Positions 8,529 through 31,278 of a stretch of 64,000 nucleotides of DNA are shown one piece after another; the first letter of the stretch is position 1; the number at the start of each line of letters is the position of its first letter. The notes under the pieces are model-generated. The model had not been told where the DNA came from and searched no databases. It worked only from the letters and a program-made list of their open reading frames with translations. The stretch is from an uncultured Candidatus Binatia bacterium. GTDB taxonomy: Bacteria > Desulfobacterota > Binatia > HRBIN30. Where the stretch lies: NCBI GenBank assembly GCA_964524885.1, contig CAZGEJ010000008.1, positions 53,462 to 117,461 of the forward strand, written 5' to 3'. A program made the translations under genes and the position numbers.

Positions 8529-8530
8529 AG

Positions 8531-8538: not shown

Positions 8539-8617
8539 TGTCGCTCGATCGTCGTGCTCATGGATCCGAAATCCCGATTGGTCTTCGTCGCTAGGCTGGC
8601 GTCACGCATGATCGTCC

Positions 8618-14510: not shown

Positions 14511-14560
14511 TCCAGAGAAATCTGACGAAAATCTGACGTTCGCGATTTTGCAAAGGAATT
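14511..14560. promoter_or_regulatory. AT-rich operator-like region in a divergent intergenic region: direct repeat AAATCTGACG x2 (14518-14527, 14530-14539) and palindrome AGGAA-TTTG-TTCCT
   Basis: Local AT-rich island in a 68% GC background, between the divergent genes starting at 14296 (-) and 14828 (+). The same decamer occurs again at 54482-54491, upstream of the 54663 gene. Confidence 0.4.
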
Positions 14561-14688
14561 TGTTCCTGCGGCGCACGGTTTCCCGCCCCTCCGAAGCGTC
14601 GCCGCGCGCCTCCCCAGCCGGTCCGGACCCGCCGCAGTCCCACCCCGAGCGCCCCCCAACGGCAACCAAACGCAGGCGCCGACGCGCC

Positions 14689-14718
14689 CTAAGCCTCAGC
14701 CTCAGCCTAAGCCTAAGC
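14689..14718. repeat. Hexanucleotide microsatellite (CTAAGC/CTCAGC)x5
   Basis: ctaagc ctcagc ctcagc ctaagc ctaagc, read directly in the intergenic region. Confidence 0.9.
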
Positions 14719-14827
14719 CCTCCGGCGCCCAAGCGCCGACCCCACCAATTGTCCGCCGAGCCCCCGCTCTGGTACGGTCGATCGCACCCGGCGGTGCAGC
14801 AAGCCGCTCGGTAGCGGAGGGCTGACT

Positions 14828-15895
14828 GTGTCCCATCGTTTCGCCCGACTCTGCGTGCTCAGCATGTTGGCCGCCGTGGCCTTCATCTGGATCCGCCGTC
14901 CAGCGGTCGAGCCACCGGTGCACGTACGCGAGTTCGTCTCCGAGGCCCTGACTCTCGACGGCATCTACCGTTCGATGCGCGGGCCGACGAGCAGCCGGAC
15001 CATCCAGATCGACCCGGCCCAGCCGCCGCGCCGCATCTGGATTCGCGGCGTCGATGTCGAACCCGTTGCCGCCGACGGCTCCGTGCTGCCGGACGGCCAG
15101 CAATTCATTTGTCACGTCAATCTGTCGTATCCCGATCGCGAGTCCTGGCTACGCGATCTCGAACCCATGGAGCGCCAGGGGCGCTGGCTGCCCTTCAACC
15201 AGTTCACCTTGGTGCAAGGGCACTACTCCATCGACTTCCCCCCAGGCTTTGCCCTACCCGCCTCCTCCGATCAGCCCTTCCGCTTGCTGACGATGGCGCA
15301 AAATCAGGATCCGGCGCGCGACCCCTTCGCCCTGCACATCCGCTCGCGGCTGCGCTTCCACTACGACGACGAACTGCCTCAGCCCCCCATCCCGCTCAAC
15401 AAGCTCTCTTGGGACATCCGCGTGCCCGCCCCTTACGTTCCCGAGGTGCACGACCCGTTGCGCGCCGGCGAGAGTTGCGCCGGCGACGACCCGATCCTCG
15501 GTGCCGAGGGCACGCCGCCGGTGCTGCACTTCGCCGTACCGCCCGGCCGGCACGAGTATCGCAGCGTCGTCGACGGGGTCACCAAGATCCCGTTTCCGAC
15601 GACGGCGCACCACATTTCGGCGCACCTACACGTCTATGGGGTATCCCTCGAACTACGCGACCAGACGGCCGACCGGACCTTGTTCAAGAGTCTCGCCACG
15701 ACCAACCCGTCGGCCACCGGAATCGTCGAGATGACCCACTATTCGAGTGCCAGCGGCCTGCCGCTCGATCCGACGCACCGTTACGAGTTGATCGCCATCT
15801 ACGACAACCCGACGCCGCACGTGGTCGACGCCATGGCCGTCGTTTACATCTATTACAGAGACGTCCCGCCCGGCTCCGGCGAGCAGGCCTCGTGA
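14828..15895 (+). CDS. Hypothetical membrane-anchored protein (355 aa, N-terminal TM helix), first gene of a three-gene operon
   Basis: GTG start with GGAGGG 6 nt upstream; N-terminal hydrophobic segment LCVLSMLAAVAFIWI. The stop overlaps the next start (GTGA). Confidence 0.6.
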   Translation: MSHRFARLCVLSMLAAVAFIWIRRPAVEPPVHVREFVSEALTLDGIYRSMRGPTSSRTIQIDPAQPPRRIWIRGVDVEPVAADGSVLPDGQQFICHVNLSYPDRESWLRDLEPMERQGRWLPFNQFTLVQGHYSIDFPPGFALPASSDQPFRLLTMAQNQDPARDPFALHIRSRLRFHYDDELPQPPIPLNKLSWDIRVPAPYVPEVHDPLRAGESCAGDDPILGAEGTPPVLHFAVPPGRHEYRSVVDGVTKIPFPTTAHHISAHLHVYGVSLELRDQTADRTLFKSLATTNPSATGIVEMTHYSSASGLPLDPTHRYELIAIYDNPTPHVVDAMAVVYIYYRDVPPGSGEQAS

Positions 15896-16764
15896 GTCCT
15901 TTCAGGATCCCATGGGCGCCTGCGGTCGACGGCCCCACGGAGCGCCGCCGGCAGGTCGACGCCTTCGCCACGCTGCTGCTGGCGATCGTCGCCGTCGAGT
16001 ATTGGTCGCGTGGCATCCCGAAGTGGAACGACCTCGGCCCGCAGTACGTCGGGACCGCCGTGCTCGTCAGCGTGCTGGCGCTGCTGGGCATCGCGTGGCC
16101 GCGAACGCGCCGTAGCGTCTGCGCCGTCATCACCGGGCTGCACGTCGGCATCATCGTCGCCGAGTTTCCCGAAGCGGCGAATCACTCGTACTTGGAGGCG
16201 ACCCTCTGCGGCTTGGTGGCCCTGCTCGACGTCCGGCGCGACGAGGAGGTGGTGCTGCTGCGCGATGCGGCCCGAGTTCTCTTCGCCATCGTCTTGTTCT
16301 ACGCCGGCCTGCAGAAACTCCTGAGCGGCTACTGGTTCGCCGGGCAATACCTCGCCTTCTCCCTGGCGCGTCCGTCCTTCCAGCCCGTCCTCGCGCCGCT
16401 CCTCACGGCCGACGAATTCGCGCGTCTGACGGCCTACGGCGGCGCCGTCGGCGATGGTCCGTATCGGGTCGAGACGCCGCTTTTCCTGCTCGCCTCGAAC
16501 GCGGTCTACATCGCGGAGATGGCCTTGGCGCCGCTGTTGCTGTGGCAACGGGCGCGCGTCCTGGCGGCGCTCGCCGCGATCGCCCTGATCGTCATCATCG
16601 AAATCGCCGCGCGTGAGTTCTTCTTCGGATTGGTCTTTCTCAACCTGGCGTTGCTCTTCCTGCCGTCGTCCTGGCATGGGCGCGCCCGCTGGCCCGGCGC
16701 CGCGGCACTCGCCTACCTTCTGCTCGTGCGCCTCGGCGTCGCGCCGGCGATGGTGTTCCAGTGA
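15892..16764 (+). CDS. Polytopic integral membrane protein, unknown function (~290 aa). A weak, unverified resemblance to HTTM/SdpB-like membrane proteins
   Basis: GTG at 15892 overlaps the upstream TGA. Translation VSPFRIPWAPAVDG... contains many hydrophobic helices. It is reported in the track only as the C-terminal part of the mis-started ORF 15109..16764. Confidence 0.55.
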   Translation: MSPFRIPWAPAVDGPTERRRQVDAFATLLLAIVAVEYWSRGIPKWNDLGPQYVGTAVLVSVLALLGIAWPRTRRSVCAVITGLHVGIIVAEFPEAANHSYLEATLCGLVALLDVRRDEEVVLLRDAARVLFAIVLFYAGLQKLLSGYWFAGQYLAFSLARPSFQPVLAPLLTADEFARLTAYGGAVGDGPYRVETPLFLLASNAVYIAEMALAPLLLWQRARVLAALAAIALIVIIEIAAREFFFGLVFLNLALLFLPSSWHGRARWPGAAALAYLLLVRLGVAPAMVFQ

Positions 16765-17225
16765 CGACGGCGACGAAGCGGTGGATCGTGCGCGGCGTCT
16801 TGACGGCGGCGCTGCTCTGGCCCCTCGTGCATCTCGCCTTGGTCGCGCGCTACGACTTGAGCCGTTGGAAGCTCGCCGGCTGGGGCATGTACACCGAGCC
16901 GGGACTCAAGGACGTCGGCATGGAAGTCTACGGCCGGCGCACGGCCAACGGGACGCTGGAAATCCTCACCGAGATCGACGCGGTCCTGCGCCGGGAGGCC
17001 GACGAATTCCTGTACGATTATCGCTGGTTGCGCCGCCTGACCCAGCCCGACTCGTTCGTCGCCGCCATCGCCGCGGCGCGTCCCGAGTGGCAACGGATCG
17101 AGGTCCATGTCTTCCGTCCCTATCTGGACGCGGCCAGCGGCATCGTCGAACGCTCGCAGGTGCGTTACCTCTACGACCGAGACCACGACGGGATACGACT
17201 GTCGGCGGTCGAGGAAGTCCATTGA
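16761..17225 (+). CDS. Hypothetical protein (154 aa) with an N-terminal TM helix, third gene of the operon
   Basis: GTG start overlaps the TGA of the previous gene (GTGA); hydrophobic segment WIVRGVLTAALLWPLVHLALV. Confidence 0.5.
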   Translation: MTTATKRWIVRGVLTAALLWPLVHLALVARYDLSRWKLAGWGMYTEPGLKDVGMEVYGRRTANGTLEILTEIDAVLRREADEFLYDYRWLRRLTQPDSFVAAIAAARPEWQRIEVHVFRPYLDAASGIVERSQVRYLYDRDHDGIRLSAVEEVH

Positions 17226-17417
17226 GCCGGCGGCACGGCCCGCGGATGATTTGACCCGCGAAACCCATGCGCTAGGGTGCCGACGGACTTTGGGGTACGC
17301 GATCCATGCCCACGGAGGAGAGAGGAACGCGCCGGCCGGCCACGGCCCGCGCAGGCGGTGGTGGGCGTCAGGGCACGCGTGGCCCGACGCGGCGCACCGT
17401 CCGCTTCCACGACTGAC

Positions 17418-19376
17418 ATGCAAGCAAGCGAACCGTCGACTCCCGCGTCGACCGAGAACACTTCCGGCCATCACGGCCACGGCGAGGCGCACGGGCACAC
17501 GCCGCACGGGCCGACGCTAGCGCTCGCACTCGGCGCGTTGGGCGTCGTCTACGGCGACATCGGCACCTCGCCCCTCTACACGGTGCGCGAGTGTTTCATC
17601 GGCCCGCACGCCGTGCCGATCAATCCGGACAACATTCTCGGCATCCTGTCGCTGGTGTTCTGGTCGATGACCGTACTCGTCTCGATCAAGTACCTGAGTT
17701 TCGTCATGCGCGCCGACAACGAGGGCGAAGGCGGGGTCATGGCGTTGCTGGCGCTGGTCATTCCGGCGGGCAACGACCCGACGCCGCGGCGGTCGCGACT
17801 CATCCTCGTTGGGCTGTTCGGTTCCGCGCTGCTCTACGGCGACGGCGTGATCACACCGGCGATTTCGGTGCTTTCGGCGGTCGAGGGACTGAGCGTCGCT
17901 ACCCACACGCTCGAGCCCTTGGTCATGCCGATCGCCTTCGTGATCTTGATCGGCTTGTTCTCGGTGCAGAAACGCGGCACGGCCGGCCTCGGCACCATCT
18001 TCGGGCCGGCGATGCTCGCGTGGTTCATCACCATCGGCATTCTTGGTCTGCACTCGATCCTGACCCAGGCTCACGGCGAGATTTCGGTCTTGCAGGCTCT
18101 TTATCCGTGGCACGCTCTCACCTTCTTCATCGACAACGGCGTGCACGGCTTCCTCATCCTCGGGTCGGTCGTTCTGTGCGTCACCGGCGGCGAGGCGCTC
18201 TACGCCGACATGGGGCATTTCGGCGCCCGACCGATCCGACTCGCTTGGTACACGGTCGCCCTACCCGGCCTGCTGTTGAACTACTTCGGCCAGGGGGCGC
18301 TCCTGCTCGCCGAGGGCAGTGCGGTGCGCAACCCCTTCTTCGAGTTGGCGCCGGCCTGGGCCCTGTATCCGCTCGTCGGCCTGTCGACGTTGGCGACGAT
18401 CATCGCCTCGCAAGCCCTCATCTCCGGCGCCTTCTCGCTGACCCAGCAGGCGACCCAGCTCGGCTACTTGCCGCGCTTCAACATCATCCACACCTCCGGC
18501 CAAGCCGCCGGCCAAATCTACATCCCCGAAGTCAACGCCGCCCTCATGGTGATGTGCCTGCTGCTGGTGTTGGGCTTTCAGAACTCGAGCAATCTCGCCA
18601 GTGCCTACGGCATTGCCGTCACCATCACCATGGCGGTGACCACCGTGCTGTTTTACGTCTTGGCACGTGACCAATGGCGCTGGCCCAAACTGCCCACACT
18701 GGCGATCGTCACTCTCTTTCTCGTCTTCGAACTCGCCTTCCTCGCCGCCAATCTCGTCAAGGTGGTGGCGGGTGGTTGGTTCCCTCTGCTGGTCGGCTTG
18801 ATCGTCTTCACGGTACTGACCACCTGGAAGCGCGGCCGCTCCGAGGTCGCCCTCCTGCTCAGCCGTGCCGGCTTGCCGCTCGATGCCTTCCTCGCCGACG
18901 TCGAAATCAATCGCCCGCACCGGGTCGAGGGCACCGCGGTGGTCATGACCTCCAACCCCGAGGGCGTGCCGCCGGTGTTGCTGCATCATTTCAAGCACAA
19001 CAAGACGCTGCACAAACGCGTCGCCCTGGTGTCGATCCTCTCCGAAAAGCGTCCGGAAGTGCCCGATCGGGAGAAGGTCGCCGTCACCGAACTCGGCCAC
19101 GGCTTTTTCCGCGTCGTCGCCCGCTTCGGCTTCATGGAAACGCCGCGCATCCGCCACGTCTTGCGCCTATGCCAAGCCCACGGGCATGCCTTCGACATGA
19201 TGCAGACGACGTTCTTCCTCGGCCGCGAAACGTTGCTCTCGACCGGCAAGTCGAAGATGGCGCGCTGGCGCAAGCGCCTCTACTCCTTGCTGGCGCGCAA
19301 CGCGCCGTCGGCCGCCTCCTTCTTCGACATTCCGCCGAACCGCGTCGTCGAACTGGGCACGCAGCTCGAACTGTAA
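17418..19376 (+). CDS. kup: KUP/HAK/KT family potassium uptake transporter
   Basis: Translation MQASEPSTP...GALGVVYGDIGTSPLYTVRECF... carries the Kup signature GVVYGDIGTSPLY. It has 12 TM-like segments and a cytoplasmic C-terminal domain. Confidence 0.9.
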   Translation: MQASEPSTPASTENTSGHHGHGEAHGHTPHGPTLALALGALGVVYGDIGTSPLYTVRECFIGPHAVPINPDNILGILSLVFWSMTVLVSIKYLSFVMRADNEGEGGVMALLALVIPAGNDPTPRRSRLILVGLFGSALLYGDGVITPAISVLSAVEGLSVATHTLEPLVMPIAFVILIGLFSVQKRGTAGLGTIFGPAMLAWFITIGILGLHSILTQAHGEISVLQALYPWHALTFFIDNGVHGFLILGSVVLCVTGGEALYADMGHFGARPIRLAWYTVALPGLLLNYFGQGALLLAEGSAVRNPFFELAPAWALYPLVGLSTLATIIASQALISGAFSLTQQATQLGYLPRFNIIHTSGQAAGQIYIPEVNAALMVMCLLLVLGFQNSSNLASAYGIAVTITMAVTTVLFYVLARDQWRWPKLPTLAIVTLFLVFELAFLAANLVKVVAGGWFPLLVGLIVFTVLTTWKRGRSEVALLLSRAGLPLDAFLADVEINRPHRVEGTAVVMTSNPEGVPPVLLHHFKHNKTLHKRVALVSILSEKRPEVPDREKVAVTELGHGFFRVVARFGFMETPRIRHVLRLCQAHGHAFDMMQTTFFLGRETLLSTGKSKMARWRKRLYSLLARNAPSAASFFDIPPNRVVELGTQLEL

Positions 19377-19440
19377 GGCGCGGCTTCCAGCCGACACCGC
19401 TCCTGAGGTATCGAACCGCATGGAAGATGAGGAGATCGTC

Positions 19441-20481
19441 ATGCATCGCTACATCCGCTCGATCGGGCTCCGCCTCGCGCTCGCGCTCTCCCTCTGGGTC
19501 GGCAGCGGTACGCCGGCGTGGGCCGTCGCCGCCGACCTCGGCGAACTACTCCCGGCTCTCGGCTTCGACCAGGACGACGCCGACGACCTGCTCTCGGGCA
19601 AGGTACTCGCCGGAGAACTGACCGAAGGTGGCGGCAAGGAGTTGGCGATCACCCTCGCTCTCTTCGTCAAGGCCCCCCCGAGCAAGATCGCGCACGCCGT
19701 CCGCGACGGCGAGACGCTGCACGCCTCGCGCGACGTACTCGGCACAGCGACGCTCACCGACGCTGCAACCGCCGCCGCCGCATTGGCCAAGATCTCCTTG
19801 CCCGACAAGGAAGTGGTGGCTCTCTCGCAAGCCGAAGCCGGCTCCGACTTCAACCTCTCCAGCGACGAGATCGCCGCCCTGCGCGCGGCAGCCGCAGGGA
19901 AGTCTGCCAAGGAAGTGGCCACCGACGCCAACCTGCGCGCCGCGGTCGCCGATGCCTACCGCAAGGCCTTGGCGCAGCGCCTCGCGGCCTACCAGGCACG
20001 CGGCGTCGCCGGTATCGCCGCCTACGATCGCGGCGGCAGTCGCTCGCAACCATCCGACGAACTCGCCGGCGCCCTCGGCCGCGACGCCGTCCTGCGGCAA
20101 CGCCAGCCGGAAGTGTACGCCGCATTGGAATCGTTCCCGAAGAAACCTCTCGCCGGCGCCGAACATCAGTTCCTCGGCCTGTTGCAGGACGCCAACGGCC
20201 GTCCGGCCATGGTGCTGTCACATCGGATGTTCGTCGATCTGCCGCACGGAGCCCTGCTGGCCGAGCGACAATTCTTCGTCGGCCATTCGTACAACTCATT
20301 GCAAGTCTTGATCGGTGTCATCCCCGTCGACGGCGGTTCCGTGGTGTTCTATCGCAACCGCACCTTCACCGACCAGGTCACCGGCTTCGGCGGCGCGGCC
20401 AAGCGCGGCATCGGCGAGACGATGATGCGCGACGCCATCTCGGCCAAGCTCGAAGCGATTCGCAGCAAGGTCTTCGAATGA
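19441..20481 (+). CDS. Secreted hypothetical protein (signal peptide MHRYIRSIGLRLALALSLWVGSGTPAWA)
   Basis: ORF with GAGGAG 7 nt upstream of the ATG at 19441; an alternative start is 19420. Confidence 0.55.
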   Translation: MHRYIRSIGLRLALALSLWVGSGTPAWAVAADLGELLPALGFDQDDADDLLSGKVLAGELTEGGGKELAITLALFVKAPPSKIAHAVRDGETLHASRDVLGTATLTDAATAAAALAKISLPDKEVVALSQAEAGSDFNLSSDEIAALRAAAAGKSAKEVATDANLRAAVADAYRKALAQRLAAYQARGVAGIAAYDRGGSRSQPSDELAGALGRDAVLRQRQPEVYAALESFPKKPLAGAEHQFLGLLQDANGRPAMVLSHRMFVDLPHGALLAERQFFVGHSYNSLQVLIGVIPVDGGSVVFYRNRTFTDQVTGFGGAAKRGIGETMMRDAISAKLEAIRSKVFE

Positions 20482-20525
20482 CCCGCCGCCAGCAGCGGCA
20501 ATCACCGCAGGACAAGGAGGGCAAG

Positions 20526-21548
20526 ATGCGCCACGGTTGGATGATCGCCGCCATCGCTGGGCTCATGCTCGGCATCACGGGAACCGCGCAGGCGCAGCAA
20601 CTGAGTCACTATCTGCCGGGCCTTCCCAACTCGAACGACCTCTTCCTGCCACCGGAAGAGGCGGGTGAACTCGTCTATCTTCAGTACAACGTCTATTACC
20701 GCCCCGCAGCCTTGCGCAACGGCGACGGCAAAGAGATCGACGAGATCACCTTCACGCCCCGCTTCGGCAACCCGCGCACGGTCGACCTCGATCTCGACAT
20801 CGATCTCGTCTACATCGTGCCCACCATGGTCTGGGCACCGGACGTCCCCGTCCTCGGCGGTCGTTATGCCGCCTATGTCGCCCTGCCCGTCGGCCACCCC
20901 TCGATCAACGCCGGCGTCGAGTCGGCCCTCGGCTTCGGCCGCAACATCGACGAGTCCTCCTGGGGCGTGGGCGACATGTTCATCCAACCGCTCTGGTTCA
21001 TGTGGACCTTCCCGCGCCAGGGACGCCGCCCGACCCTCGATGTGACGGCAGGCTACGGCTTCGACGCACCCACCGGACGATACGAGGCCGGCGCCGCCGA
21101 CAACACCGGACTCGGCTTCTGGGAGCATCAATTCCAGTCGGCCCTGCGTCTGCGCGTCGACGAGCGCATCGGCCTCAATGCCTTCGTCGCCCACACCTTC
21201 GAAGTCGGCCACAACAAGGAAGACGCCGACATCCGACCCGGCGCCCACTATACGACCAACTGGGGCTTCGGACGGCAGTTCGCCGAGGGCTGGTTGGAGA
21301 CCGCCGTGCTCGGCTACCACTCCTTCCAGATCACCGAGGACTCCGGCTCCGACGTCCTCGCTCGCACCAAAGACGACCTCGATCAGGTCCACGGGATCGG
21401 CGCCCAACTGGGCGTTCCGAAGCTGGGCCTGTCGGTCAAGTACTTCCGCGAGTTCTGTGCCCAATCGCGCTTCGAAGGGGATCTCGTCACGTTCACCTTC
21501 GCTCTGCCTCTCGAGTTGCTGGCGCAGAAAGTCGGGCTCGACCTTTGA
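20526..21548 (+). CDS. Putative outer-membrane beta-barrel protein (transporter / MetA-pathway-like family)
   Basis: Signal peptide MRHGWMIAAIAGLMLGITGTAQAQQ with AGGAGGG upstream. It has alternating amphipathic beta-strand composition and many aromatic residues. The family assignment is from recollection, not a database search. Confidence 0.45.
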   Translation: MRHGWMIAAIAGLMLGITGTAQAQQLSHYLPGLPNSNDLFLPPEEAGELVYLQYNVYYRPAALRNGDGKEIDEITFTPRFGNPRTVDLDLDIDLVYIVPTMVWAPDVPVLGGRYAAYVALPVGHPSINAGVESALGFGRNIDESSWGVGDMFIQPLWFMWTFPRQGRRPTLDVTAGYGFDAPTGRYEAGAADNTGLGFWEHQFQSALRLRVDERIGLNAFVAHTFEVGHNKEDADIRPGAHYTTNWGFGRQFAEGWLETAVLGYHSFQITEDSGSDVLARTKDDLDQVHGIGAQLGVPKLGLSVKYFREFCAQSRFEGDLVTFTFALPLELLAQKVGLDL

Positions 21549-21592
21549 GGCACCCCTGCGCGCCGGCCGTGCCGCGGCGAGGCCGGCCAGGC

Positions 21593-23812
21593 GTGACCCG
21601 TCTCGCGGTCGCGGCGCTGCTCGCCTTCGCCGCGGCAGCCCATGCCGACACCGGGTTCGTCGACGAGTCGACCTGCGCCTCCTGCCATGCAACCGCCGCC
21701 GCCGCTTGGGCCGGCTCGCACCACGATCTCGCCATGCAGGAGGCCTCCGCGTCGACCGTGCGCGGAGCCTTCCACGGCTCGGAGGTGACATACGCAGGCG
21801 TCACCTCGCGCTTCAGCCAGCGCGACGGGCGCTTCTTCGTGCGCACCGACGGCGCCGACGGCCAACTCGCCGAATTCGCCATCAGCGCCGCCTTCGGGGT
21901 CGAACCCTTGCAGCAATATCTGGTGGATTTCGCCGACGGGCGAAAACAACCCCTGCCCCTCGCCTGGGATACCGCCGCGCGCCGCTGGTTCCACCTGTAT
22001 CCCGACGAATCGGTCGACTTCCGCGACGAGTTGCACTGGACCAAGCCGGCACAGAACTGGAATCACATGTGCGGCGAGTGCCACGCCACCGGCTATCGCA
22101 AGAACTACGACGCCGGCAAGGATCGCTTCGCCACCGCCGCCGCACGCTTCGACGTCGGCTGCCAGGCTTGCCACGGCCCCGCTGCGCGTCATCTGGAGTG
22201 GGCCAAGTCCGTCACGCCCGACGCCGCGCCTCGCCCACGCGACGTGGTACGACGGGGTTTCGACGTCGACCTGAGCGACGGCGACCGCCAACTCGAGGTG
22301 TGCGCCCAGTGCCACGCCCGCCGCGCCCGGCTGAGCGACGACGTCCGCTTCGACGCGCCGCTGCTCGACGCCCACCTGCCGGCCCTGTTGACCGAAGACC
22401 TTTATACCGCCGACGGCCAGATCCTCGGCGAGGTGTTCGAGTACGGATCGTTTCTCCAAAGCCGTATGCATGCCAAAGGCGTGCGTTGCAGCGACTGCCA
22501 CGAGCCGCATTCGACCCGCGTCCGCGCACCGGGGAACGCGCTGTGCGTCACATGCCACAACCCGACGGCCCCGGCCGCCGGCGCACACGTCGACACGAGC
22601 GGCTTGCTGCGCAAGACGTACGACGCGCCGGAGCACCATTTCCATCAGCCAGGCACGCCGGGCGCGCGATGCGTCGACTGCCACGCGCCGCCGCGCACCT
22701 ACATGGTCGTCGACCCGCGCCACGATCACAGCTTCCGCGTGCCGCGCCCGGATCTTTCGGTCAGCCTCGGCACGCCCAACGCCTGCCAGGGCTGTCATGC
22801 GGACAAGCCCGCTCCGTGGGCCGTCGAGCAGATCGAACGACGCTTCGGCACCCAACGCCGCCAACAACCCCATTTCGGCTCGACGCTGGCCGCCGGACGA
22901 CGTGGCCAACCGGGTGCGGCGGCGGCGCTGGCCGGCTTGATCGCCGACACGAGCCAACCCGGCATCGTGCGAGCCACCGCGCTCGAAGTCTTCACGGCCT
23001 ATCCGGGTCGGCCGTTGCTCGAAGCCCTGGCGCGCGCGACACGCGACGGCGACGCGCTCGTGCGGCGCACTGCCGCGACGGCCCACGAATCGCTGCCGCC
23101 CGAGATGCGCCGAGCGGCGCTCGAACCGCTGTTGAGCGACCCGACGCGTGCCGTGCGCATCGAAGCGGCACGCCTGCTGGCGCCCGTCGCCGCCGGGTTG
23201 GCGCCGGACGCTGCGGCGAAACAGGCGCGCGCCATCGCCGAACTCGAAGCGGTTTTCGCCCGCAACGCCGACCGGGCCGACGGCCTGACCAACCAGGGCA
23301 ACCTCGCCGTGGCCCGCAACGATGCAGCCGCGGCGGAGCGTTTGTTTGAGCAAGCCATCCGGCGCGACCCCCATTTCGTGCCGGCCTACGTCAATCTCGC
23401 CGACCTCTACCGCGCCACCGGACGTGAACCACAAGCCGAGAGCACGCTGCGCGCCGGCCTGGCCGTCGTGCCGCAAGCACCGGCGCTACACGAGACTCTC
23501 GGCCTCGCCTTGGTGCGCCAAGGCAGGAAAAACGAGGCCTTGCAGGAGTTCACCGCCGCCGTGAATGCGGCGCCGGAGGAGTCTCGCCTGGCGTATGTGT
23601 ACGCCTTGTCGCTCGACGACGCCGGCCGCCGCGCCGAGGCCATCGCGGTGCTCGAAACCGCCGACGCCCGGAGGAGCGACCGCGACATCCTTTTGGCGCT
23701 GGCAGCGTATGCGCGCGATGCCGGCGATACCGCCGCGATGGCGCGGCATCTCCAATCCCTGGCGGCCATCAACCCGCACGATCCCGCCGTCGCTCCCGCG
23801 GCACCACGCTGA
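21593..23812 (+). CDS. Multiheme cytochrome c (8 CXXCH motifs) fused to C-terminal TPR repeats
   Basis: GTG start followed by signal peptide VTRLAVAALLAFAAAAHA. Haem-binding motifs: CASCH, CGECH, CQACH, CAQCH, CSDCH, CVTCH, CVDCH, CQGCH. The C-terminal half has TPR-like repeats (RADGLTNQGNLAVARNDAAAAERLFEQAIRRDPHFVPAYVNLADLY...). Confidence 0.8.
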   Translation: MTRLAVAALLAFAAAAHADTGFVDESTCASCHATAAAAWAGSHHDLAMQEASASTVRGAFHGSEVTYAGVTSRFSQRDGRFFVRTDGADGQLAEFAISAAFGVEPLQQYLVDFADGRKQPLPLAWDTAARRWFHLYPDESVDFRDELHWTKPAQNWNHMCGECHATGYRKNYDAGKDRFATAAARFDVGCQACHGPAARHLEWAKSVTPDAAPRPRDVVRRGFDVDLSDGDRQLEVCAQCHARRARLSDDVRFDAPLLDAHLPALLTEDLYTADGQILGEVFEYGSFLQSRMHAKGVRCSDCHEPHSTRVRAPGNALCVTCHNPTAPAAGAHVDTSGLLRKTYDAPEHHFHQPGTPGARCVDCHAPPRTYMVVDPRHDHSFRVPRPDLSVSLGTPNACQGCHADKPAPWAVEQIERRFGTQRRQQPHFGSTLAAGRRGQPGAAAALAGLIADTSQPGIVRATALEVFTAYPGRPLLEALARATRDGDALVRRTAATAHESLPPEMRRAALEPLLSDPTRAVRIEAARLLAPVAAGLAPDAAAKQARAIAELEAVFARNADRADGLTNQGNLAVARNDAAAAERLFEQAIRRDPHFVPAYVNLADLYRATGREPQAESTLRAGLAVVPQAPALHETLGLALVRQGRKNEALQEFTAAVNAAPEESRLAYVYALSLDDAGRRAEAIAVLETADARRSDRDILLALAAYARDAGDTAAMARHLQSLAAINPHDPAVAPAAPR

Positions 23813-23851
23813 GTCGCGCCGACGCGAGCGACGAGACGGGCGTCGGGCGCG

Positions 23852-24154
23852 TCAGCCGCGCGACGCGAGCACGTGCTCGCGGTGCAACAAGTAGAGCAAG
23901 GCGCCGATGCTGCCGAGACCGAGCGTGGCGGCGACGTAGGGCGGCGCGGCGATGCCTTGCTCGCGGGCATCGCGCACCATCCACACGAGAAACAACATCA
24001 GCGCGATGACCAAATCGAAGAACACCTGCATGCCCATCGTGTTGGCGAAGTGGTAGGCGAAAAGCGCCACGAGACCGTGGTAGTAGAGCGCGTGAGCGGT
24101 CAACCCGAGGAACGCGACGAGCACGCCCGTCAACGCAAGTTGCTTGGCATTCAT
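23852..24154 (-). CDS. Small hydrophobic membrane protein (100 aa), unknown function
   Basis: ORF MNAKQLALTGVLVAFLGLTAHALYY... with three predicted TM helices. Confidence 0.45.
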   Translation of the reverse strand: MNAKQLALTGVLVAFLGLTAHALYYHGLVALFAYHFANTMGMQVFFDLVIALMLFLVWMVRDAREQGIAAPPYVAATLGLGSIGALLYLLHREHVLASRG

Positions 24155-24333
24155 GGAACCCTCCTGATGCGGACAGCGTCCGCGCTGGCGTTTGGCGCGG
24201 CTTCACTCCAAGCCGCGTGCCATCCCGGCGCATGCGGCACGTTCGGCCGCCGACGACTGCGGCGACGTAGCCACGTTGCCGCGGGGCAACACGCGTTGCG
24301 CCGCCGCAACACGCTGGCCGCCGACTTGCGGCT

Positions 24334-25412
24334 GTGGATCGGCTTGCCGACAATGTGCCGCATGGTTCGAAAGTTGCGTCACCCTCGGGTCGAACCGCGA
24401 TGGAGATACCCGTGACCGCTGCCCCGTCCGCCACTGCACCCCTTCCCACGACCGATCGAGCCACTGGGCCGCGCTGGCGCTGGTGGGGCGTCGTCGCCGG
24501 GATCGCGTCCGGACTCTTCGACACCTTCGGGTTGCGCGCCCTCGGCGTGTCCCTCGAGGTCAACGGCAACGACGTGATGCCGGCGGTCGCCCTGTTCTTC
24601 GCCAGTTCGTTCGCCCTGCTCGGCTTTCTCCTCGGTTATCTCGTCGAGCAACGACGCAGCGAACGCGCCATGGCCGATGTCGTACACCGGCAGCTCGCCG
24701 ACCTGGCGGCACTACGCGACCGGCTGGCCCAGAGCGAGAAGCTCGCAGCCCTCGGCCAACTGGCGGCGGCCATCGCGCACGAAGTGCGCAATCCTCTCGG
24801 CGTCATTCGCTCGGCGGCACAAGGCATCGGCGAATCCCTCACCTCGGACGATCGCGACACGCGCCGAGCCTGCGCCTTCATCACCGACGAGATCGATCGC
24901 CTCAACGGCGTCATCACCGCCCTGCTCGCCTTCGCCCGCCCCCTGAAGCTCGACCGCCGACCGACCTCGGTCGCCGCCATGCTCGAACGGGCGACCCAAC
25001 TCGTGGCCCGCGAACTCGCCGGCAGAACGCTCGAGCTACGCGCGCACCCTCCCCACGATGCGCTGGCGATCGAAGCCGACGCCGACCTCGCCACCCAAGC
25101 TCTCGTCGACCTCTTGCTCAATGCGGCCGCCGTCAGCCCGCCCGGCGCCGATATCGAGGTCGACACCCGCGTCGAACTCGACGCGGTGACCATCGCCGTC
25201 GTCGATCACGGTCCCGGCGTGCCCGTGGAACTGCGGGAGCGCATCTTCGAACCCTTCTTCACCACCAAGCCCGAAGGCACCGGGCTCGGCCTTGCCGTGG
25301 CGCGACAGATCGCCGTAGCGCATGGCGGACGCCTCTGCGTCGAAGCGGCTGCCGCCGGCGGTAGCCGCTTCAGCCTGGTCTTGCCGCGAGCCAGCGCCGC
25401 CCTGGTGCCCGC

Positions 25413-25416
<4 letters not shown>
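24334..25416 (+). CDS. Sensor histidine kinase (TM segments, HisKA, HATPase_c)
   Basis: H-box AAIAHEVRNPLGVI and G-boxes DHGPGVP...GTGLGLAV. A likely alternative start is the ATG at 24400 (MEIPVT). The stop overlaps the downstream start (ATGA). Confidence 0.8.
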
Positions 25417-26756
<1,340 letters not shown>

Positions 26757-26770
26757 ACCGACGCCGCGGT

Positions 26771-27598
26771 TCAGGAACGCCGGGCGCGCGCCACCATGCG
26801 ATCGGCGAGTGCATTGGTGAGACGACGCGGCAGCAACTTCTGCAACCACCAGGCGAAACGGGCGCGCCGGCCCGGGATGATCAGAAACTGTCCACGCTCG
26901 AGGCGGTCGATCATGTAACGGCAGCCCGCATCGAGGTCGACCACGCCGGCGAACAACTTCATCGCCGCCGTCTCCGGCGGGCGATCGCGCCGCTCGGACC
27001 GTGCCATCGGCGTGTCGATCTCGGGCGGACAGATCAGGCTCACCGCGATGCCGCGGGGTCGGCATTCGGTCCGCAGCACGCTACCCAACCCGACGACGGC
27101 ATGCTTCGACGCGGCGTAGCCGGCCTGACCATAGGCGGTGGTCAGGCCGGCGAGAGAAGCGACGAGGGCCAGATGCGAACCCGCCTGCATGTGCGGCAAT
27201 ACGGCAGCCGCCAAGTGGCGCGTACCGAATACGTTGATCCGCACCATGTCCTCGAACCGCTGCGCCGGAAATTCGAGAAACGGGCGCGAGAACCCGCCGA
27301 CGCCGGCGGCGTGGAAGACCACCCGCGGCGGACCGAGGTCGCCGACGACCCGTTCGACCGCAACGGCCAAGCCGGCGGCGTCGGTGACGTCGACGATTTC
27401 CGTCAGCACGACCTGCGCCGCGGAGCGCCGGTTCGCTTCGATCGCCGCCACGACCGCAGCATCGAAATGGCGGTCGAACAATGACAGCGATGCACCCCGA
27501 CCGGCATAGAGTTCGGCCACGCGACGCCCGATGCCGCTACCGGCGCCGGTGACGAGGACGTGATCCCAGCTGGCGCCCGACATGCGACTCACCCGCAT
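26771..27598 (-). CDS. Short-chain dehydrogenase/reductase (SDR)
   Basis: TGAGSGIG Rossmann motif and a YxxxK catalytic motif (YAASK); overlaps the upstream regulator gene by 10 bp. Confidence 0.8.
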   Translation of the reverse strand: MRVSRMSGASWDHVLVTGAGSGIGRRVAELYAGRGASLSLFDRHFDAAVVAAIEANRRSAAQVVLTEIVDVTDAAGLAVAVERVVGDLGPPRVVFHAAGVGGFSRPFLEFPAQRFEDMVRINVFGTRHLAAAVLPHMQAGSHLALVASLAGLTTAYGQAGYAASKHAVVGLGSVLRTECRPRGIAVSLICPPEIDTPMARSERRDRPPETAAMKLFAGVVDLDAGCRYMIDRLERGQFLIIPGRRARFAWWLQKLLPRRLTNALADRMVARARRS

Positions 27599-30525
27599 AG
27601 AGCGGCGTGCAGCGCAGCGATTCGTTGCCGGGCGCGCTCGACGTCGACGCCCGCCGGTCCGGACGGATGCGCGGCCAAGCTCGCCTCGAGGTCGGCCAGC
27701 GCCGGCCCGACTTCGCCGCGTCGTTGGCGCTCGTAGGCAAGCGAGGTGGAGGCCCGCAGATGGAGGAGTCGGGAGCCTTGTTGCTCGGCGATGTCACAAG
27801 CCCGGCGGTACGCGTGTTCGGCCGCAGTCGGTTGCTGGCGTCGCCGCGGTCGCGAGCCGTGCGCCAGGATGTCGCCGTGCAACCTCCAGAACTCGACCAG
27901 CAGGTGCGCTTCGCCGCCCTGCTCGCAGGCGGCGAGGCTGGCGTCGACGATGGCGGCGGCCGCAGCGACGTCCCCACCGAGGAGGAACGTCTCGGCGAGC
28001 ACCTGCCGGTGGTTCAGCAGGTTCTCGGCGTCGACGCGGTCCTGCAGTGATGTCAGAACTTGCTGCATCCTCGCCGTCACCGCGCCCGACGGGTGCTCCA
28101 GCCACTCCCGGTAGAGACGATAGAATTCGACCCGCAGCTCGAAGTAGGCGAGATCGTGGCGCCGACAGTGGGCGTTGGCGAGATGATACAACTCGTCCAA
28201 GAGTGTACGACTGCGCTGCAAAATCACCGCGTGCAACGAGACGACGATGACGGCCGCATAACCCCACGGGAGGTCGACGGCGGCGGCCAGCTGCACAGCG
28301 CGACGCACCGAGTCCTCGGCAGCGGCGTACTCCCCCAGGTGAGCCAGCGCGATCGAGCGCCAGGCCTCGGACTCGGCCACGGGGTCGACGTGAATCGGTA
28401 CACCTGCCGCGGCGGGAAAGCCCTGGGCCCTCTCGATGCTCTCGAGACTGGCGCGGAACTCCCCCTTGCCGATGTGCAAGCGAGCGGCGCGGATATGGCT
28501 GTAGAAATGCAACCCCTCCTGCACCGGAGCATCGGCGATCACGTCGAGGAGGCGGTCGACGATCGGCTGGGTTGCGTCGATCCGACCCAGATCGAGGGTG
28601 ACCGAGCTGATACCGAGCAAGGCGCGCACCCGCTCGCGCACCGCCCCCGCCGCCTTGGCGTGCGTCTCGGCATCGGCGAACGCCTGCGCCACGGCCGGGT
28701 GGGCGAACCCGTGGAGGCCGGCCAAGACGTTGCCGAGGGTAAGTAGAACGCGGGCCCGTCGCAGCTCGATACCGTCCATCTCGCCGACGAGGTCGAGATG
28801 GGTCTGGGCCCGCTGCAGCGAGCGCAGAGCTTCGTGGTAATCACAGCGGCCCATGGCGACGAGGGCCGCCTGCTCGCGATAGGTTGCGGCGCGATCATGA
28901 TCGAGCGCCGCCTCGAAGTGCATCGCCAGACGCAGTGCCCCTTCACCCGGCCGTTGGGCATAGAGTCGCTCGAGGTGGCGTCCGATGCGCTCGTGCAGGC
29001 GTCGCCGTTGCGACGGAGCGATGCGGCTGTAGACGGCGCGCTGATACAGGACGTGAGTGAAGCGGAAGACCTCGTCGCCTTCGGCGGCGCCGCTGCGCGT
29101 GCCGACGCCGAGGCGCAGGTAGGCGCCGCGCTGCACGACTCCGTAACCGAGATCACCCAGCGCGTCGGGATCGACGTCGAGGGCAGCGCTCAGCAAATCG
29201 AGCGTCGCCTCGTCCCCCGCTACGCTCGTGGCCTCGAGGAAGCGCAGCATTTCGGGTGACAAGCCACTCAGCTGGAGTTCGATGAGGTCGCGTAGATCCT
29301 CGGGCAAGCGCGGTACGAATCGATCGAGGTCACTGGCCAGTTTCCAACCACCGGCGTCGGGGCGTAGCCATCCCTCTTGCCGCAGCTGGTCACAAACGGC
29401 GCGTACGAACAACGGATTGCCGCCGCAGTGCCGACCGACGGGCTCGGCGAGGCGCATGCCGAGATCCTCATCCCCGAGCAGGTGCCCGAGACAGGCGCCC
29501 ACTTCAGCGACACTGAAGGCCGCCAGCGGGAGCACTTCGACGCTCTCGCGGCGCCGCAACTGCGCCGCCATCGGCACGATGGAATGGCCGTGCACGAGAG
29601 CGTCGACGGGCCGATAGGTGCCGATGAGCAGCAAGCGCGCCGGCGCCGTGCTCTGGCACAGCACGGGCAGCAGTTCGACCGTGGCCGTATCGGACCAGTG
29701 CAGGTCTTCGAGGACGAGAATCAGAGGCAAGTCCCGCGTCAGCGCCGCCATCAAGGCATCGGCTTCGCGCACCAGTCGTTGGCCGCCCTCGCCGATGAGC
29801 GAGCGTGCCAGCACGGCTTGCTCCGACGGGCGCAGGAGCCACGGCATTTGGGCCAGCCATCCCGGCGCATGCCGCCGGGCCGCATCCTCGACCAAGGCGC
29901 GGCGCGAGCCGAGCGACAACTCGCCGAGCGCCCGCAGCAGCGGGGCATAGGTTTCCGTGCTCCCATGGGACTCGATGCACGGCGCGCGCGCCACGATCGC
30001 ATCGGCGGCACCGACGAGAAACTGATCGACCAACGTCGTCTTGCCGCCGCCCGGTTCTCCGGTGATGAAGACGGCTCGGCGTTCACCCGCCTTCGCCGCC
30101 GCCAGCGCCGCGTCGAGCCGGGCCAGTTCATGGGCACGTCCGACGAAGCCCAGGACCGCGCTCGGCGGCGGCGATCGCAGGCTGGTGTCGCCGACCTCGG
30201 CGAGAAAGCGGTAGCCGCGCCGCGGCACCGTTTCGATGAAGCGGCGTCCATCGCGACCGTCGTCGAGCAGGCGGCGCAGCTCGCCGACGACGTTGGTCAT
30301 GGCGTTCGGCGTCACCGCCGTATCGCCCCAGACCGCGTCGTGCAGTTCCTCCGACGTCACCAGCCGACCGCAGTGGGCGACCAAGTACCGCAGCAGCGCC
30401 AACACCTTCGGGCGCAACGGCAGGTCCAGTTCGCCGCGTCGCAGACGGCCCTCCACCATGTTGAGCTCGAAGGGGCCGAAGGTGACGATCGCTGCTGCCG
30501 CAGCCATGGGTTCGAGTGGACTCAT
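27589..30525 (-). CDS. Large transcriptional regulator: OmpR/CadC-type winged-helix DNA-binding domain plus AAA/STAND-like ATPase plus TPR region
   Basis: N-terminal FGPFELNMVEGRLRRGELDLPLRPKVLALLRYLV...VPRRGYRF (trans_reg_C). Walker A GEPGGGKTTL. A long helical TPR-like C-terminus. The start is taken at MSPLEP (30525) rather than the ORF's upstream ATG at 30663. Confidence 0.7.
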   Translation of the reverse strand: MSPLEPMAAAAAIVTFGPFELNMVEGRLRRGELDLPLRPKVLALLRYLVAHCGRLVTSEELHDAVWGDTAVTPNAMTNVVGELRRLLDDGRDGRRFIETVPRRGYRFLAEVGDTSLRSPPPSAVLGFVGRAHELARLDAALAAAKAGERRAVFITGEPGGGKTTLVDQFLVGAADAIVARAPCIESHGSTETYAPLLRALGELSLGSRRALVEDAARRHAPGWLAQMPWLLRPSEQAVLARSLIGEGGQRLVREADALMAALTRDLPLILVLEDLHWSDTATVELLPVLCQSTAPARLLLIGTYRPVDALVHGHSIVPMAAQLRRRESVEVLPLAAFSVAEVGACLGHLLGDEDLGMRLAEPVGRHCGGNPLFVRAVCDQLRQEGWLRPDAGGWKLASDLDRFVPRLPEDLRDLIELQLSGLSPEMLRFLEATSVAGDEATLDLLSAALDVDPDALGDLGYGVVQRGAYLRLGVGTRSGAAEGDEVFRFTHVLYQRAVYSRIAPSQRRRLHERIGRHLERLYAQRPGEGALRLAMHFEAALDHDRAATYREQAALVAMGRCDYHEALRSLQRAQTHLDLVGEMDGIELRRARVLLTLGNVLAGLHGFAHPAVAQAFADAETHAKAAGAVRERVRALLGISSVTLDLGRIDATQPIVDRLLDVIADAPVQEGLHFYSHIRAARLHIGKGEFRASLESIERAQGFPAAAGVPIHVDPVAESEAWRSIALAHLGEYAAAEDSVRRAVQLAAAVDLPWGYAAVIVVSLHAVILQRSRTLLDELYHLANAHCRRHDLAYFELRVEFYRLYREWLEHPSGAVTARMQQVLTSLQDRVDAENLLNHRQVLAETFLLGGDVAAAAAIVDASLAACEQGGEAHLLVEFWRLHGDILAHGSRPRRRQQPTAAEHAYRRACDIAEQQGSRLLHLRASTSLAYERQRRGEVGPALADLEASLAAHPSGPAGVDVERARQRIAALHAALCG

Positions 30526-30682
30526 CGCACCACGCCCGCCCTTACCACAGAGCGGACGAGCGCTTCGACCCTTCGCCAACGAAAACTCCCGCCGCGAGCA
30601 CGCGCGGGCTGCGGCTCGACAGCAACCGCCGTATGCGCCAAAAGCAGGCTTCGCCTCGTACACGACACCGGGAGGAACGGAG

Positions 30683-31144
30683 ATGGAAGTCAGTCAGGAA
30701 CTGCGCGCCAAGTGGATCCAAGCACTGGAGAAGGGCATCCCCTTCGTCGAGCGCACGGGCATCGAGGTGCTGGCGCTGGAGCCGCGTTACGTGAAGATGA
30801 AGCTCCCGTTCGCCCCCAACGTGAATCACGTCGGCATGATGTACGCGGGGGCCCTCTTCACCCTCGCCGAGTTGCCGGGCGGCGCCATCTTCCTCTCGTC
30901 GTTCGACGCCCGAAAGTTCTACCCCATCGTGCGCGACATGCAGATCCGCTTCCTCAAGCCGGCCCTGACCGACGTCACCGTAGAAGTCCGGCTGAGCGAG
31001 GAGGAGGCACGCGACATCGCGGCGCGCGCCGAGGCCGAGGGCAAGGCCAACTACGAATGGAAGTGCGAACTCAAGGACGCCAACGGGGAGATCGTCGCGG
31101 TCACCACCAACCAGTACCAGATGCGGCGGCATCCGGGGCGGTGA
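30683..31144 (+). CDS. Hotdog-fold thioesterase-like protein (PaaI/YiiD_C-like)
   Basis: GGAGG 8 nt upstream of the ATG. Motif NHVGMMYAGALFTLAELPGGAIF resembles the PaaI-type N..G..HGG..A.LAD core. About 154 aa. Confidence 0.55.
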   Translation: MEVSQELRAKWIQALEKGIPFVERTGIEVLALEPRYVKMKLPFAPNVNHVGMMYAGALFTLAELPGGAIFLSSFDARKFYPIVRDMQIRFLKPALTDVTVEVRLSEEEARDIAARAEAEGKANYEWKCELKDANGEIVAVTTNQYQMRRHPGR

Positions 31145-31146
31145 AG

Positions 31147-31188
31147 GCTGAGGCTTAGGCTGAGGCTTAGGCTGAGGCTGAGGCTTGG
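31147..31188. repeat. Hexanucleotide microsatellite (GCTGAG/GCTTAG)x7, inverted relative to the array at 14689
   Basis: gctgag gcttag gctgag gcttag gctgag gctgag gcttgg, immediately after the thioesterase stop codon. Confidence 0.9.
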
Positions 31189-31262: not shown

Positions 31263-31278
31263 TGGCGCGCGGCTTGCA
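31263..31278 (+). promoter_or_regulatory. Candidate sigma-54 (-24/-12) promoter TGGCGC-N5-TTGCA upstream of the 31353 gene
   Basis: cTGGCGCgcggcTTGCAa with correct GG-N10-GC spacing, about 75 bp upstream of the ATG at 31353. An NtrC-type activator is encoded at 25413. Confidence 0.5.

Follow-up and report, generated by a model that had tools for sequence, protein, structure and literature searches.

Intergenic G-rich tandem repeats have been described in Xanthomonas, as (GGGAATC)n, and in Nostoc, as GGGGAYT (STRR heptamers), by Rehm et al. 2015 (PMC4692102). The placement of these repeats follows a rule in which the repeat either overlaps a stop codon or is at most 50 bp away from one, with its G-rich strand as the sense strand, or else lies upstream with that strand as the antisense strand, and is nearer to its 5′ neighbouring ORF; positions between divergent genes are under-represented (PMC4692102). 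These strand-biased repeats are the closest described kind to two short hexanucleotide arrays, A and B, found in the window, which is the whole 64-kb stretch of DNA analysed here. Like the Xanthomonas and Nostoc repeats, arrays A and B have tandem units of 6-7 nt in a handful of copies and are non-coding, with the G-rich strand biased to the sense strand near a stop codon and closer to the 5′ ORF; in both cases there is no tie to mobile elements or surface genes, variation between close relatives is strong, and function is unproven. Unlike those repeats, the arrays in the window are built from a hexamer with GG rather than GGG or GGGG, one position of which alternates between G and T, they are predicted to form G.U hairpins and no stable G-quadruplex, and array A is located between divergent genes.

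Long simple sequence repeats of prokaryotic genomes (units of 5-11 nt) were reportedly the subject of work by Mrazek, Guo and Shah (PNAS 2007), and the arrays resemble them in being non-coding, slippage-prone, present in free-living bacteria and lineage-specific in motif; that work is not known to describe the (GGCTKA) motif, or the placement of this motif at stop codons, specifically. REP sequences (REP/BIME, enterobacteria) are imperfect palindromes of about 35 nt, with folding on either strand and a transposase of their own (RAYT). The arrays share with REP/BIME a location between co-oriented genes just past a stop codon and a possible transcript stem-loop, but they are tandem hexamers whose predicted folding is via G.U pairs on one strand only. 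With the Hin/Gin/Cin-type switches, shufflons and the fim switch they have in common only the inverted identity at two ends of a block. In contrast to those systems, the 16-kb block in the window consists of genes for housekeeping and regulation with no invertase or integrase, its ends are simple hexamers without a crossover core, no orientation switch or promoter logic was seen, and one "end" is missing in relatives with the same gene order.

Two inverted hexanucleotide arrays are located in intergenic DNA

Array A (14689..14718) consists of five hexamer units, which read CTAAGC CTCAGC CTCAGC CTAAGC CTAAGC on the plus strand and GCTTAG GCTTAG GCTGAG GCTGAG GCTTAG on the G-rich (minus) strand. 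Array B (31147..31188, plus strand) has six perfect GCTKAG units at 31147-31182 (K = G,T,G,T,G,G; GCTGAG GCTTAG GCTGAG GCTTAG GCTGAG GCTGAG), followed by a degenerate GCTTGG up to 31188 and then a G run; of the seven units counted in the sequence-only reading of this DNA, six are therefore perfect and the seventh is degenerate. Both arrays were detected by TRF, array B additionally with a 12-nt period (96% match). A scan with a three-unit pattern, allowing up to 2 mismatches, matched at arrays A and B only and gave 0 matches in 100 shuffles, and GCTTAG/CTAAGC hexamers, five in the whole 64 kb, occur nowhere outside the two arrays. The arrays are real and far above chance expectation. Their presence as an inverted pair, noticed earlier from the letters, was confirmed by the sequence, TRF and the pattern scan, and the same scan bore out the statement that the window holds no other arrays of this kind. 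As in G-rich SSRs, the tandem 6-nt units are non-coding and present in at least 4 copies. The number of nucleotides per unit is divisible by 3, and the mixed T/G units place TAG and TGA in two frames on the G strand, as can be seen directly in the sequence.

The earlier description of both arrays as intergenic was correct. Array A is located in the divergent spacer between a gene for a 1892-aa Cys-rich protein on its left (8618-14296, minus strand) and a gene for a 355-aa protein on its right (14828-15895, plus strand), with the start of the former, at 14296, 392 nt away and that of the latter, at 14828, 109 nt away. Array B lies between a DUF4442/YiiD_C thioesterase gene (30683-31144, plus strand; Pfam match, ribosome-binding site at the start at 30683) and a DUF1302 gene (31353-33236, plus strand); it adjoins the TGA stop codon of the thioesterase gene (31142..31144, plus strand), beginning 2 nt past it, and is 165 nt upstream of the DUF1302 gene, with its G-rich strand being the sense strand for both. 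The exact 153-aa thioesterase product was called on three Logan contigs, and protein look-ups for the thioesterase and the sigma-54 activator gave matches with corrected starts and none with ORF-maximal starts. Overall, the placement agrees with that of the Xanthomonas and Nostoc repeats; array A is antisense and upstream of the 355-aa gene, an orientation that fits at a distance that exceeds 50 bp, and the G3-4 tracts of those repeats are replaced by GG only in arrays A and B. The gene content previously given for the 16.4-kb block between the arrays was also correct: besides a three-gene operon, Kup, and a porin and multihaem cytochrome, the block encodes a sigma-54 activator together with a histidine kinase, as well as an SDR, a regulator of the AAA16 type and the thioesterase.

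The block has the same orientation in all contigs compared

Seven same-organism Logan contigs from four sequencing runs (ERR3494947, -51, -54 and -59) were collinear with the window wherever they matched it. Array B was unchanged in contig L247 (ERR3494959), which crosses it normally, and no difference in unit number was seen in array B between the MAG and ERR3494959; the visible 29 nt of array A were identical in two runs (L244 and L245). Several contigs break at the arrays: L244 and L245 start at 14690, inside array A, L246 ends at 31180, L243 starts at 31154, and L248 diverges past 31183. These breaks may reflect alleles of different unit number. L248 is 100% identical to the window at 30542-31183 and then runs on for 510 nt without a counterpart in the window; the GC of this part is 66.7% and its GC3 0.87, the same as in the genes of the window. 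For the full-length protein of this foreign part, the protein collection gave no relative above 61%, and its gene is therefore not on the annotated MAG. The exit of L248 from array B implies at least one further array copy, or a rearrangement at the array; a third copy is suggested by the behaviour of the k = 31 assembly graph together with one possibly chimeric contig.

A concatenated query (the 355-aa protein plus the thioesterase) matched only orthologues of the former, so that array A is the one compared in relatives. From two related lineages, four contigs (L249-L252) were collinear with the window and had no array of 2 or more units, and the left block boundary was crossed by L250, L251 and L252, all in window order. 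The sequence-only reading had proposed comparing the orientation of the block in related lineages, and no opposite orientation was found among the seven same-organism contigs and the four contigs of relatives. The 16.4-kb block is ordinary chromosomal DNA of fixed orientation. Cytochrome homologues on L119 and L120 (60-66% identity) were also considered for the orientation comparison and were rejected, having no synteny in common with the window and no arrays.

Array A was missing from the alignable orthologous spacer in L251 and L252 (86% nucleotide identity) and in L250 (about 77%), while the promoter-like and start-proximal flanking parts of the spacer were conserved in all three. The relatives with 86% identity come from SRR23086380, -87 and -98. 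Because it is absent from the orthologous spacer at these two distances, array A is a young, lineage-specific gain. The repeats in the window are young and dispensable, and the finding is of little consequence for this stretch.

Only the G-rich strand is predicted to fold

In folding predictions, the G strand folded with -9.6 to -18.3 kcal/mol, three of the four arrays having z-scores between -2.1 and -2.3, whereas the C strand reached -0.9 to -3.0 kcal/mol (z > +1); the G-rich strand alone is predicted to fold, into G.U hairpins. The z-score of the array A hairpin was -0.45. No G-quadruplex was predicted for array A or B by ViennaRNA with G-quadruplexes allowed, and a G-quadruplex reading of these arrays, which have GG tracts only, was dropped; ViennaRNA does predict G-quadruplexes for the adjacent (GGGGCU)n arrays of a Gemmatimonadales MAG. 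Array A is enclosed by an imperfect inverted repeat, GGCGCCGA ... TCCGGCGCC (14673..14729), and on the minus strand it is located in the loop region of a long predicted hairpin, followed by GCGTTTGGTT; the wider region around 14673..14729 is not unusual, with a z-score of -0.15.

One weak terminator-like site was found beside array A, at 14689-14674 on the minus strand. Consensus promoter and terminator scans gave nothing at array B, where there is no U tract, and no sigma-70-like promoter overlapping array A or B. A candidate sigma-54-type motif, TGGCGC-N5-TTGCA, is located at 31263-31278, 75 nt downstream of array B; the window has 4 matches to this motif versus 0.21 expected. The arrays are not placed as phase-variation repeats would be, with array B after a stop codon, units that are a multiple of 3, and no overlapping promoter.

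Similar arrays recur at stop codons in other bacteria

Stretches of (GCTKAG)4 numbered more than 117 among the matches listed, across many phyla and with the source genome not among them, and (TKAGGC)n arrays starting at the stop codons of real genes were found in at least 10 unrelated bacteria. The Gemmatimonadales MAG has five arrays of exactly five units that start 0-8 nt from the upstream stop codon, and 4 of the 5 upstream genes are Pfam-supported (UbiE, M24 peptidase, YchF, CoaX). Among further array-upstream ORFs tested, 8/10 were Pfam-supported genes ending 0-12 nt from the array. Adjacency to stop codons is partly built into the unit, since a G strand with TGA and TAG in two frames ends any ORF that enters those frames. 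The alternative offered in the sequence-only reading, a dispersed intergenic repeat family, is supported in part, by this recurrence beside stop codons, by the contig breaks and by L248; two copies were counted in the 64 kb of the source genome analysed. The metagenome scan for mixed arrays was dominated by long (TTAGGC/TGAGGC/TTAGGG)n arrays of GC-rich marine contigs, which look like eukaryotic intron or telomere-type repeats. The scan of viral sequences gave two matches, both irrelevant, and a literature search on the repeat sequence or the run accessions returned nothing relevant.

Discussion

Arrays A and B probably belong, each independently, to one class of short hexanucleotide microsatellites that are non-coding and formed by replication slippage, (GGCTKA)n (K = G or T); the two are unpaired and do not bound a mobile or invertible unit. 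Such arrays would arise and persist by replication slippage within unconstrained intergenic DNA, an origin to which the 12-nt sub-period of array B points. In each case the 5′ end of the G-rich strand is directed toward the nearest gene, at the stop of the thioesterase gene for array B and at the start of the 355-aa gene for array A, and the opposite orientation of the two would then follow from local gene context and not from pairing. More copies would be expected elsewhere in the source genome. Any effect would most likely be exerted via the folding strand, by a G.U-rich hairpin in the transcript just past the stop, comparable to a REP-type 3′ structure. The published placement rule is, however, fitted only loosely by array A, which is between divergent genes and 109 nt from the nearest. 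Hexamer arrays beginning exactly at the stop codons of conserved genes, which recur in unrelated phyla and show a strong strand bias, extend the heptamer pattern of Xanthomonas and Nostoc to a motif without G-quadruplex potential, and if the bias reflects selection rather than built-in stops, it would indicate a general, still unexplained role of G-strand repeats at bacterial gene ends.

It is unlikely, though worth stating, that the arrays are cis-elements under selection and not neutral repeats, acting through post-stop transcript structure (protection of the upstream mRNA, transcription pausing or termination, or insulation of translation via stops in two frames) or, at array B, as an upstream element for sigma-54. 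The recurrence of stop-codon placement with the G strand as sense in at least ten unrelated genomes would fit such a role, as would folding confined to the G strand, the TAG and TGA that mixed T/G units supply in two frames, and the excess of sigma-54-type motifs, one of them near array B; a like bias has been published for the Xanthomonas and Nostoc repeats, although a regulatory role was likewise not found by the authors of that closest case (PMC4692102). Against this, array A is absent in close relatives in which the flanking genes and promoter-like sequence are conserved, and can therefore be dispensed with in them, the z-scores of the hairpins reach only about -2 and are lower still in magnitude for array A, array B has neither a U tract nor a recognised terminator and no predicted G-quadruplex, and the adjacency to stop codons is in part a property of the unit. 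A broader version of this idea has still slimmer prospects: that (TKAGGC)n arrays are undescribed cross-phylum post-stop-codon elements, seeded at the stop codon and providing stops in two frames, which fold on the sense strand only or run into G-quadruplex-forming (GGGGCT)n in some lineages and are under selection for shaping mRNA 3′ ends or for insulating neighbouring genes, with a side effect as portable homologies that cause rearrangements such as the L248 junction. A coding function is hardly conceivable. Open frames are present, as PKPQPQPKPKP at array A (plus strand) and PKPQPQPKPQPKPQP at array B (minus strand), which could be read as proline-rich PKPQ repeats on the C-rich strand (cf. 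TonB-like linkers), or the arrays as a readthrough C-terminal RLRL extension, and many pure (GCTGAG)n arrays of other genomes may be coding, being crossed by long open frames (AE, PQ, AS). The frame at array B, however, runs antisense to the Pfam-supported thioesterase gene, and that at array A has no start codon in the stretch, as judged by eye from the translation, and corresponds to no listed ORF of at least 100 aa, so that the PKPQ reading was dropped; no gene was called at the arrays by gene callers on four independent contigs, and the absence of array A in relatives also counts against coding. Rfam gave no match at the arrays, with one chance lncRNA match only at a permissive threshold. 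Arrays A and B are non-coding.

The sequence-only reading had suggested that the arrays may mediate inversion of the block. An invertible 16.4-kb segment would recombine at the two arrays, by RecA-dependent exchange or a dedicated invertase, and its operons would flip relative to the surroundings. The arrays are indeed inverted relative to each other, and the assembly breaks at both would also be produced by an inversion polymorphism. Their alignment, however, covers the hexamers only (33 nt at 94%, of which at most 24 nt in a row are exact), and the flanking sequences are not homologous; a match of this length is at the lower limit for RecA-dependent exchange. Pfam scans of the genes at 8.6-35.5 kb, which take in the block and its flanks, and of other long ORFs of the window turned up no site-specific recombinase or invertase, no tRNA gene was found, and GC skew tracks gene strand with no second break at 31 kb. 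Inversion predicts the junction ...GACGCGCC-(CTMAGC)n-CTTCACCGCCCCGGATG, at which the left flank of array A runs on into the thioesterase end in reverse complement, and a second junction in which the reverse complement of 14719-14760 is followed by the array and then GCTTGGGGGGAATTCC. All junctions seen had the reference arrangement, to the right of array A in L244 and L245, to the left of array B in L246, L247 and L248, and to the right of array B in L243 and L247, and the sole aberrant junction, in L248, enters DNA outside the window instead of the predicted inverted partner. Gene order is unchanged in all contigs compared, and relatives that have no array A keep it both across the left boundary and within the block. 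An invertible segment is very improbable and already largely refuted, and the data do not support reading these separate microsatellites as the ends of one. There is also a small chance that array B is a hot spot of structural variation, at which the DNA past the thioesterase gene has, in part of the population, been replaced through homologous exchange among dispersed arrays; the arrays would then serve as portable short homologies for rearrangement generally, and not for inversion of this block. The switch of L248 at 31183 into non-window DNA of matching GC and GC3, with a gene that is off the annotated MAG, is consistent with such an exchange, and by k = 31 graph logic the breakpoints of L243 and L246, from another run, would fit a second sequence with the 33-mer 31151-31183. 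L248 is nevertheless equally explained by a de Bruijn-graph mis-join via a common 30-mer at low coverage, and L247, from a third run, passes through array B normally. Short-read metagenome assemblies break or are mis-joined at these hexamer arrays, a point that bears on the quality of MAGs; here, 4 of the 14 same-organism contig ends fell inside the 72 nt of the two arrays.

Sequence and gene context of the arrays

Array A (14689-14718), as read directly from the sequence, consists of the hexamers CTAAGC, CTCAGC, CTCAGC, CTAAGC and CTAAGC, and array B (31147-31188) of GCTGAG, GCTTAG, GCTGAG, GCTTAG, GCTGAG and GCTGAG (31147-31182), followed by one degenerate unit, GCTTGG, and a run of Gs. The positions reported in the sequence-only reading agree with this and with TRF, which detects both arrays and an additional 12-nt period in B (96% match); its count of five units in A stands, whereas the seven units counted in B are six perfect units and one degenerate. 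A pattern scan (three units, up to two mismatches) matched at A and B only, with no match in 100 shuffles, confirming that these are the only such arrays in the window, and every GCTTAG/CTAAGC hexamer of the 64 kb lies within one or the other.

The gene map, based on Pfam scans and gene calls on public contigs, places array A in a spacer between divergent genes, those of a 1892-aa Cys-rich repeat protein (8618-14296, minus strand) and a three-gene operon (355 aa, HTTM-like, 154 aa; 14828-17225, plus strand). The operon is followed by Kup (17277-19376, +), an unknown gene (19648-20481, +), a MetA-type porin (20478-21548, +), a 739-aa multihaem cytochrome with TPR (about 21593-23812, +), DUF2834 (23852-24154, -), a histidine kinase and sigma-54 activator (24334-26756, +; activator gene 25413-26756), an SDR (26771-27598, -), an AAA16/winged-helix regulator (ORF 27589-30663, -) and a DUF4442 thioesterase (30683-31144, +). 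Array B begins 2 nt past the thioesterase stop codon, between co-oriented genes, the next being DUF1302 (31353-33236, +). UvrD, LpxA, CcmB and ProB are among the chromosomal housekeeping genes of the window, in which neither tRNA nor recombinase genes were found. Named cytochrome homologues hint, weakly, at an uncultured gammaproteobacterium close to Steroidobacter and Povalibacter.

Related lineages and contigs of the same organism

Relatives were found via a cytochrome cluster mate (93% identity) and proteins orthologous to the 355-aa one (94% and 78%), giving four contigs of two related lineages. All are collinear with the window: L249 over 18070-26076 (88.7% DNA identity), L251 over 14402-17559 and L252 over 14159-16343 (both 86%), and L250 over 4678-14561 and 14954-18220 (78% and 74%). 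Two or more tandem GCTKAG units were found in none of the four. In the spacer alignment the promoter-like part (about 14400-14570) is conserved, as is the part adjoining the 355-aa gene in the 86% relatives, and array A, which sits in a central 170 nt (14570-14740) that is hypervariable relative to L250, L251 and L252, is missing. Since it is missing from a spacer with conserved parts, array A is, on these alignments, a young gain of the window's lineage and not an ancestral boundary. The AT-richer promoter-like part also contains an 11-nt direct repeat, AAATCTGACGA, present twice at 14518-14538; it is almost invariant in the 86% and 77% DNA-identity relatives and is therefore probably a regulator binding site.

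Exact-protein look-ups yielded seven short-read contigs of the same organism from four runs, all collinear with the window and 100% identical to it where matching. Four of their 14 ends lie inside the arrays (72 nt): in array A, L244 and L245 both begin at 14690, and in array B, L243 begins at 31154 and L246 stops at 31180. L247 spans array B with the unit number seen in the window, and so gives no sign of the repeat-length polymorphism raised in the sequence-only reading. L248 (Logan ERR3494951_27271) matches 30542-31183 and switches within array B to 510 nt absent from the window (L248 643-1152; GC 66.7%, GC3 0.87, as in window genes). This foreign part is the 5′ portion of a secreted-protein gene beginning MRIRDFAVGAMAAV, with a best database relative 61% identical and no Pfam match. 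We infer that, in a k = 31 graph, these break points would arise from a second sequence that has the 33-mer 31151-31183 in common with the window. Either one or more additional arrays of identical unit order would then exist, or a true recombinant at B.

Similar arrays in other genomes

Intergenic G-rich heptamer repeats have been described in Xanthomonas and Nostoc; they are dispersed, mainly non-coding, under-represented between divergent genes and variable among close relatives, with no mobile-element linkage and no demonstrated function (Rehm et al. 2015, PMC4692102). Array B agrees with their placement rules. Array A follows the orientation rule (G strand antisense to the nearest gene; closer to its 5′ neighbour) but lies 109 nt from the nearest gene and between divergent genes. 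Both arrays differ from this class in their hexamer unit, GG tracts and one position alternating between G and T.

A (GCTKAG)4 scan of one genome per species returned at least 117 stretches in many phyla. Among the matches listed, the majority are pure (GCTGAG)n, many within long open frames (AE, PQ or AS repeats), where they may be coding, and few arrays mix G and T units. The best example of mixing is one Gemmatimonadales MAG (CAVSJO010000006.1), with five arrays of exactly five units, written (TKAGGC)5-6 from the start of the spacers ( L078 680-781, 2324-2389 and 3742-3848; L013 3315-3427; L096 6943-6981), each starting within 8 nt of an upstream stop codon. Four of the five upstream genes are Pfam-supported (UbiE, M24 peptidase, YchF, CoaX) and one is unnamed; all arrays except that in the CoaX spacer run on into (GGGGCT)n. 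Among further upstream ORFs tested, 8 of 10 are Pfam-supported, end within 12 nt of the array and have the G strand as sense (Peptococcaceae, Anaerophaga (two), an alphaproteobacterium, Reyranellaceae, Pseudomonas, Massilia and Tropicimonas). Array B fits this pattern, in which stop-codon adjacency is partly automatic because the unit itself carries TGA and TAG in two frames.

Marine metagenomes (L121-L240; Ga0209302, Ga0115005-13, Ga0163111 and others) contain hundreds of long (TTAGGC/TGAGGC/TTAGGG/CTAGGC)n arrays, on contigs of 60-70% GC, often starting directly after ...CCTGGTTAG and some adjoining CCCTAA repeats; they resemble intron or telomere-type repeats of a eukaryotic (haptophyte-like) kind, not bacterial ones.

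Origin of the arrays

The arrays are probably two independent, recent, slippage-type intergenic microsatellites of the recurrent (GGCTKA)n kind, whose opposite orientation would be set by local gene context. The sequence-only reading had offered, as one of two possibilities, that they are endpoints of an invertible 16.4-kb block, which is very improbable: the inverted match of 33 nt at 94% (longest exact run 24 nt, read from the alignment) is confined to the hexamers, with no similarity in the 100-nt flanks; Pfam scans found no invertase or integrase genes within or beside the block; and GC skew tracks gene strand without a break at 31 kb. The predicted inversion junction matches none of those seen in same-organism contigs, and L250, L251 and L252 cross the left boundary arranged as in the window, without array A. 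A real rearrangement at B is suggested by L248, which couples the thioesterase gene and array to sequence without a window counterpart; however, an assembly mis-join via the shared 33-mer is equally compatible with the contig data, and we consider a real rearrangement improbable.

That the arrays are coding is almost certainly wrong. Frames through them (PKPQ, LSLS, RLRL) either run antisense to the thioesterase gene, which has Pfam support, or show no start codon in the translation; no genes are called at either array on public contigs, and an Rfam search of both gave no match. A selected cis-role, through a G-strand hairpin where a gene ends or, in the case of B, as an element 5′ of a sigma-54-type promoter (31263-31278), is possible but unlikely. 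In predicted folds of the G-rich strand, with G.U self-pairing, B reaches -18.3 kcal/mol, A reaches -9.6 and two Gemmatimonadales arrays reach -15.2 and -13.6, with z-scores of about -2 but -0.45 for A, and the C-rich strand is predicted to be nearly unstructured (-0.9 to -3.0 kcal/mol, z > +1). Neither A nor B is predicted to form G-quadruplexes, which are strongly predicted for (GGGGCU)n tracts in the Gemmatimonadales MAG; B was found to overlap neither an intrinsic terminator nor a sigma-70-like promoter, and conservation gives the cis-role no support.

Other motifs and repeats in the window

The sigma-54-type motif (TGGCGC-N5-TTGCA, plus strand) lies 75 nt downstream of array B and 75 nt 5′ of the DUF1302 start codon. 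TGGCNC-N5-TTGCW has four window matches versus 0.21 expected, the others being at 16526, 38042(-) and 41360(-). Two giant repeat-protein ORFs have no Pfam match: the Cys-rich 8618-14296 (1892 aa, 93/186-nt tandem repeats) and 54546-60242 (+; 1898 aa, low-complexity repeats of 6/12/18 nt). In the 78% relative L250 (1-9628), the gene called after the Cys-rich one is 10,665 residues long. About five tandem 42-nt units (TCCGTTGAACCGAAAACCGATTTGACATCGCAAAACCGTTCA) at 62757-62977, between a convergent hydrolase gene (61219-62598, +) and ProB-PUA (63279-63941, -), look like an iteron-like or binding-site array.
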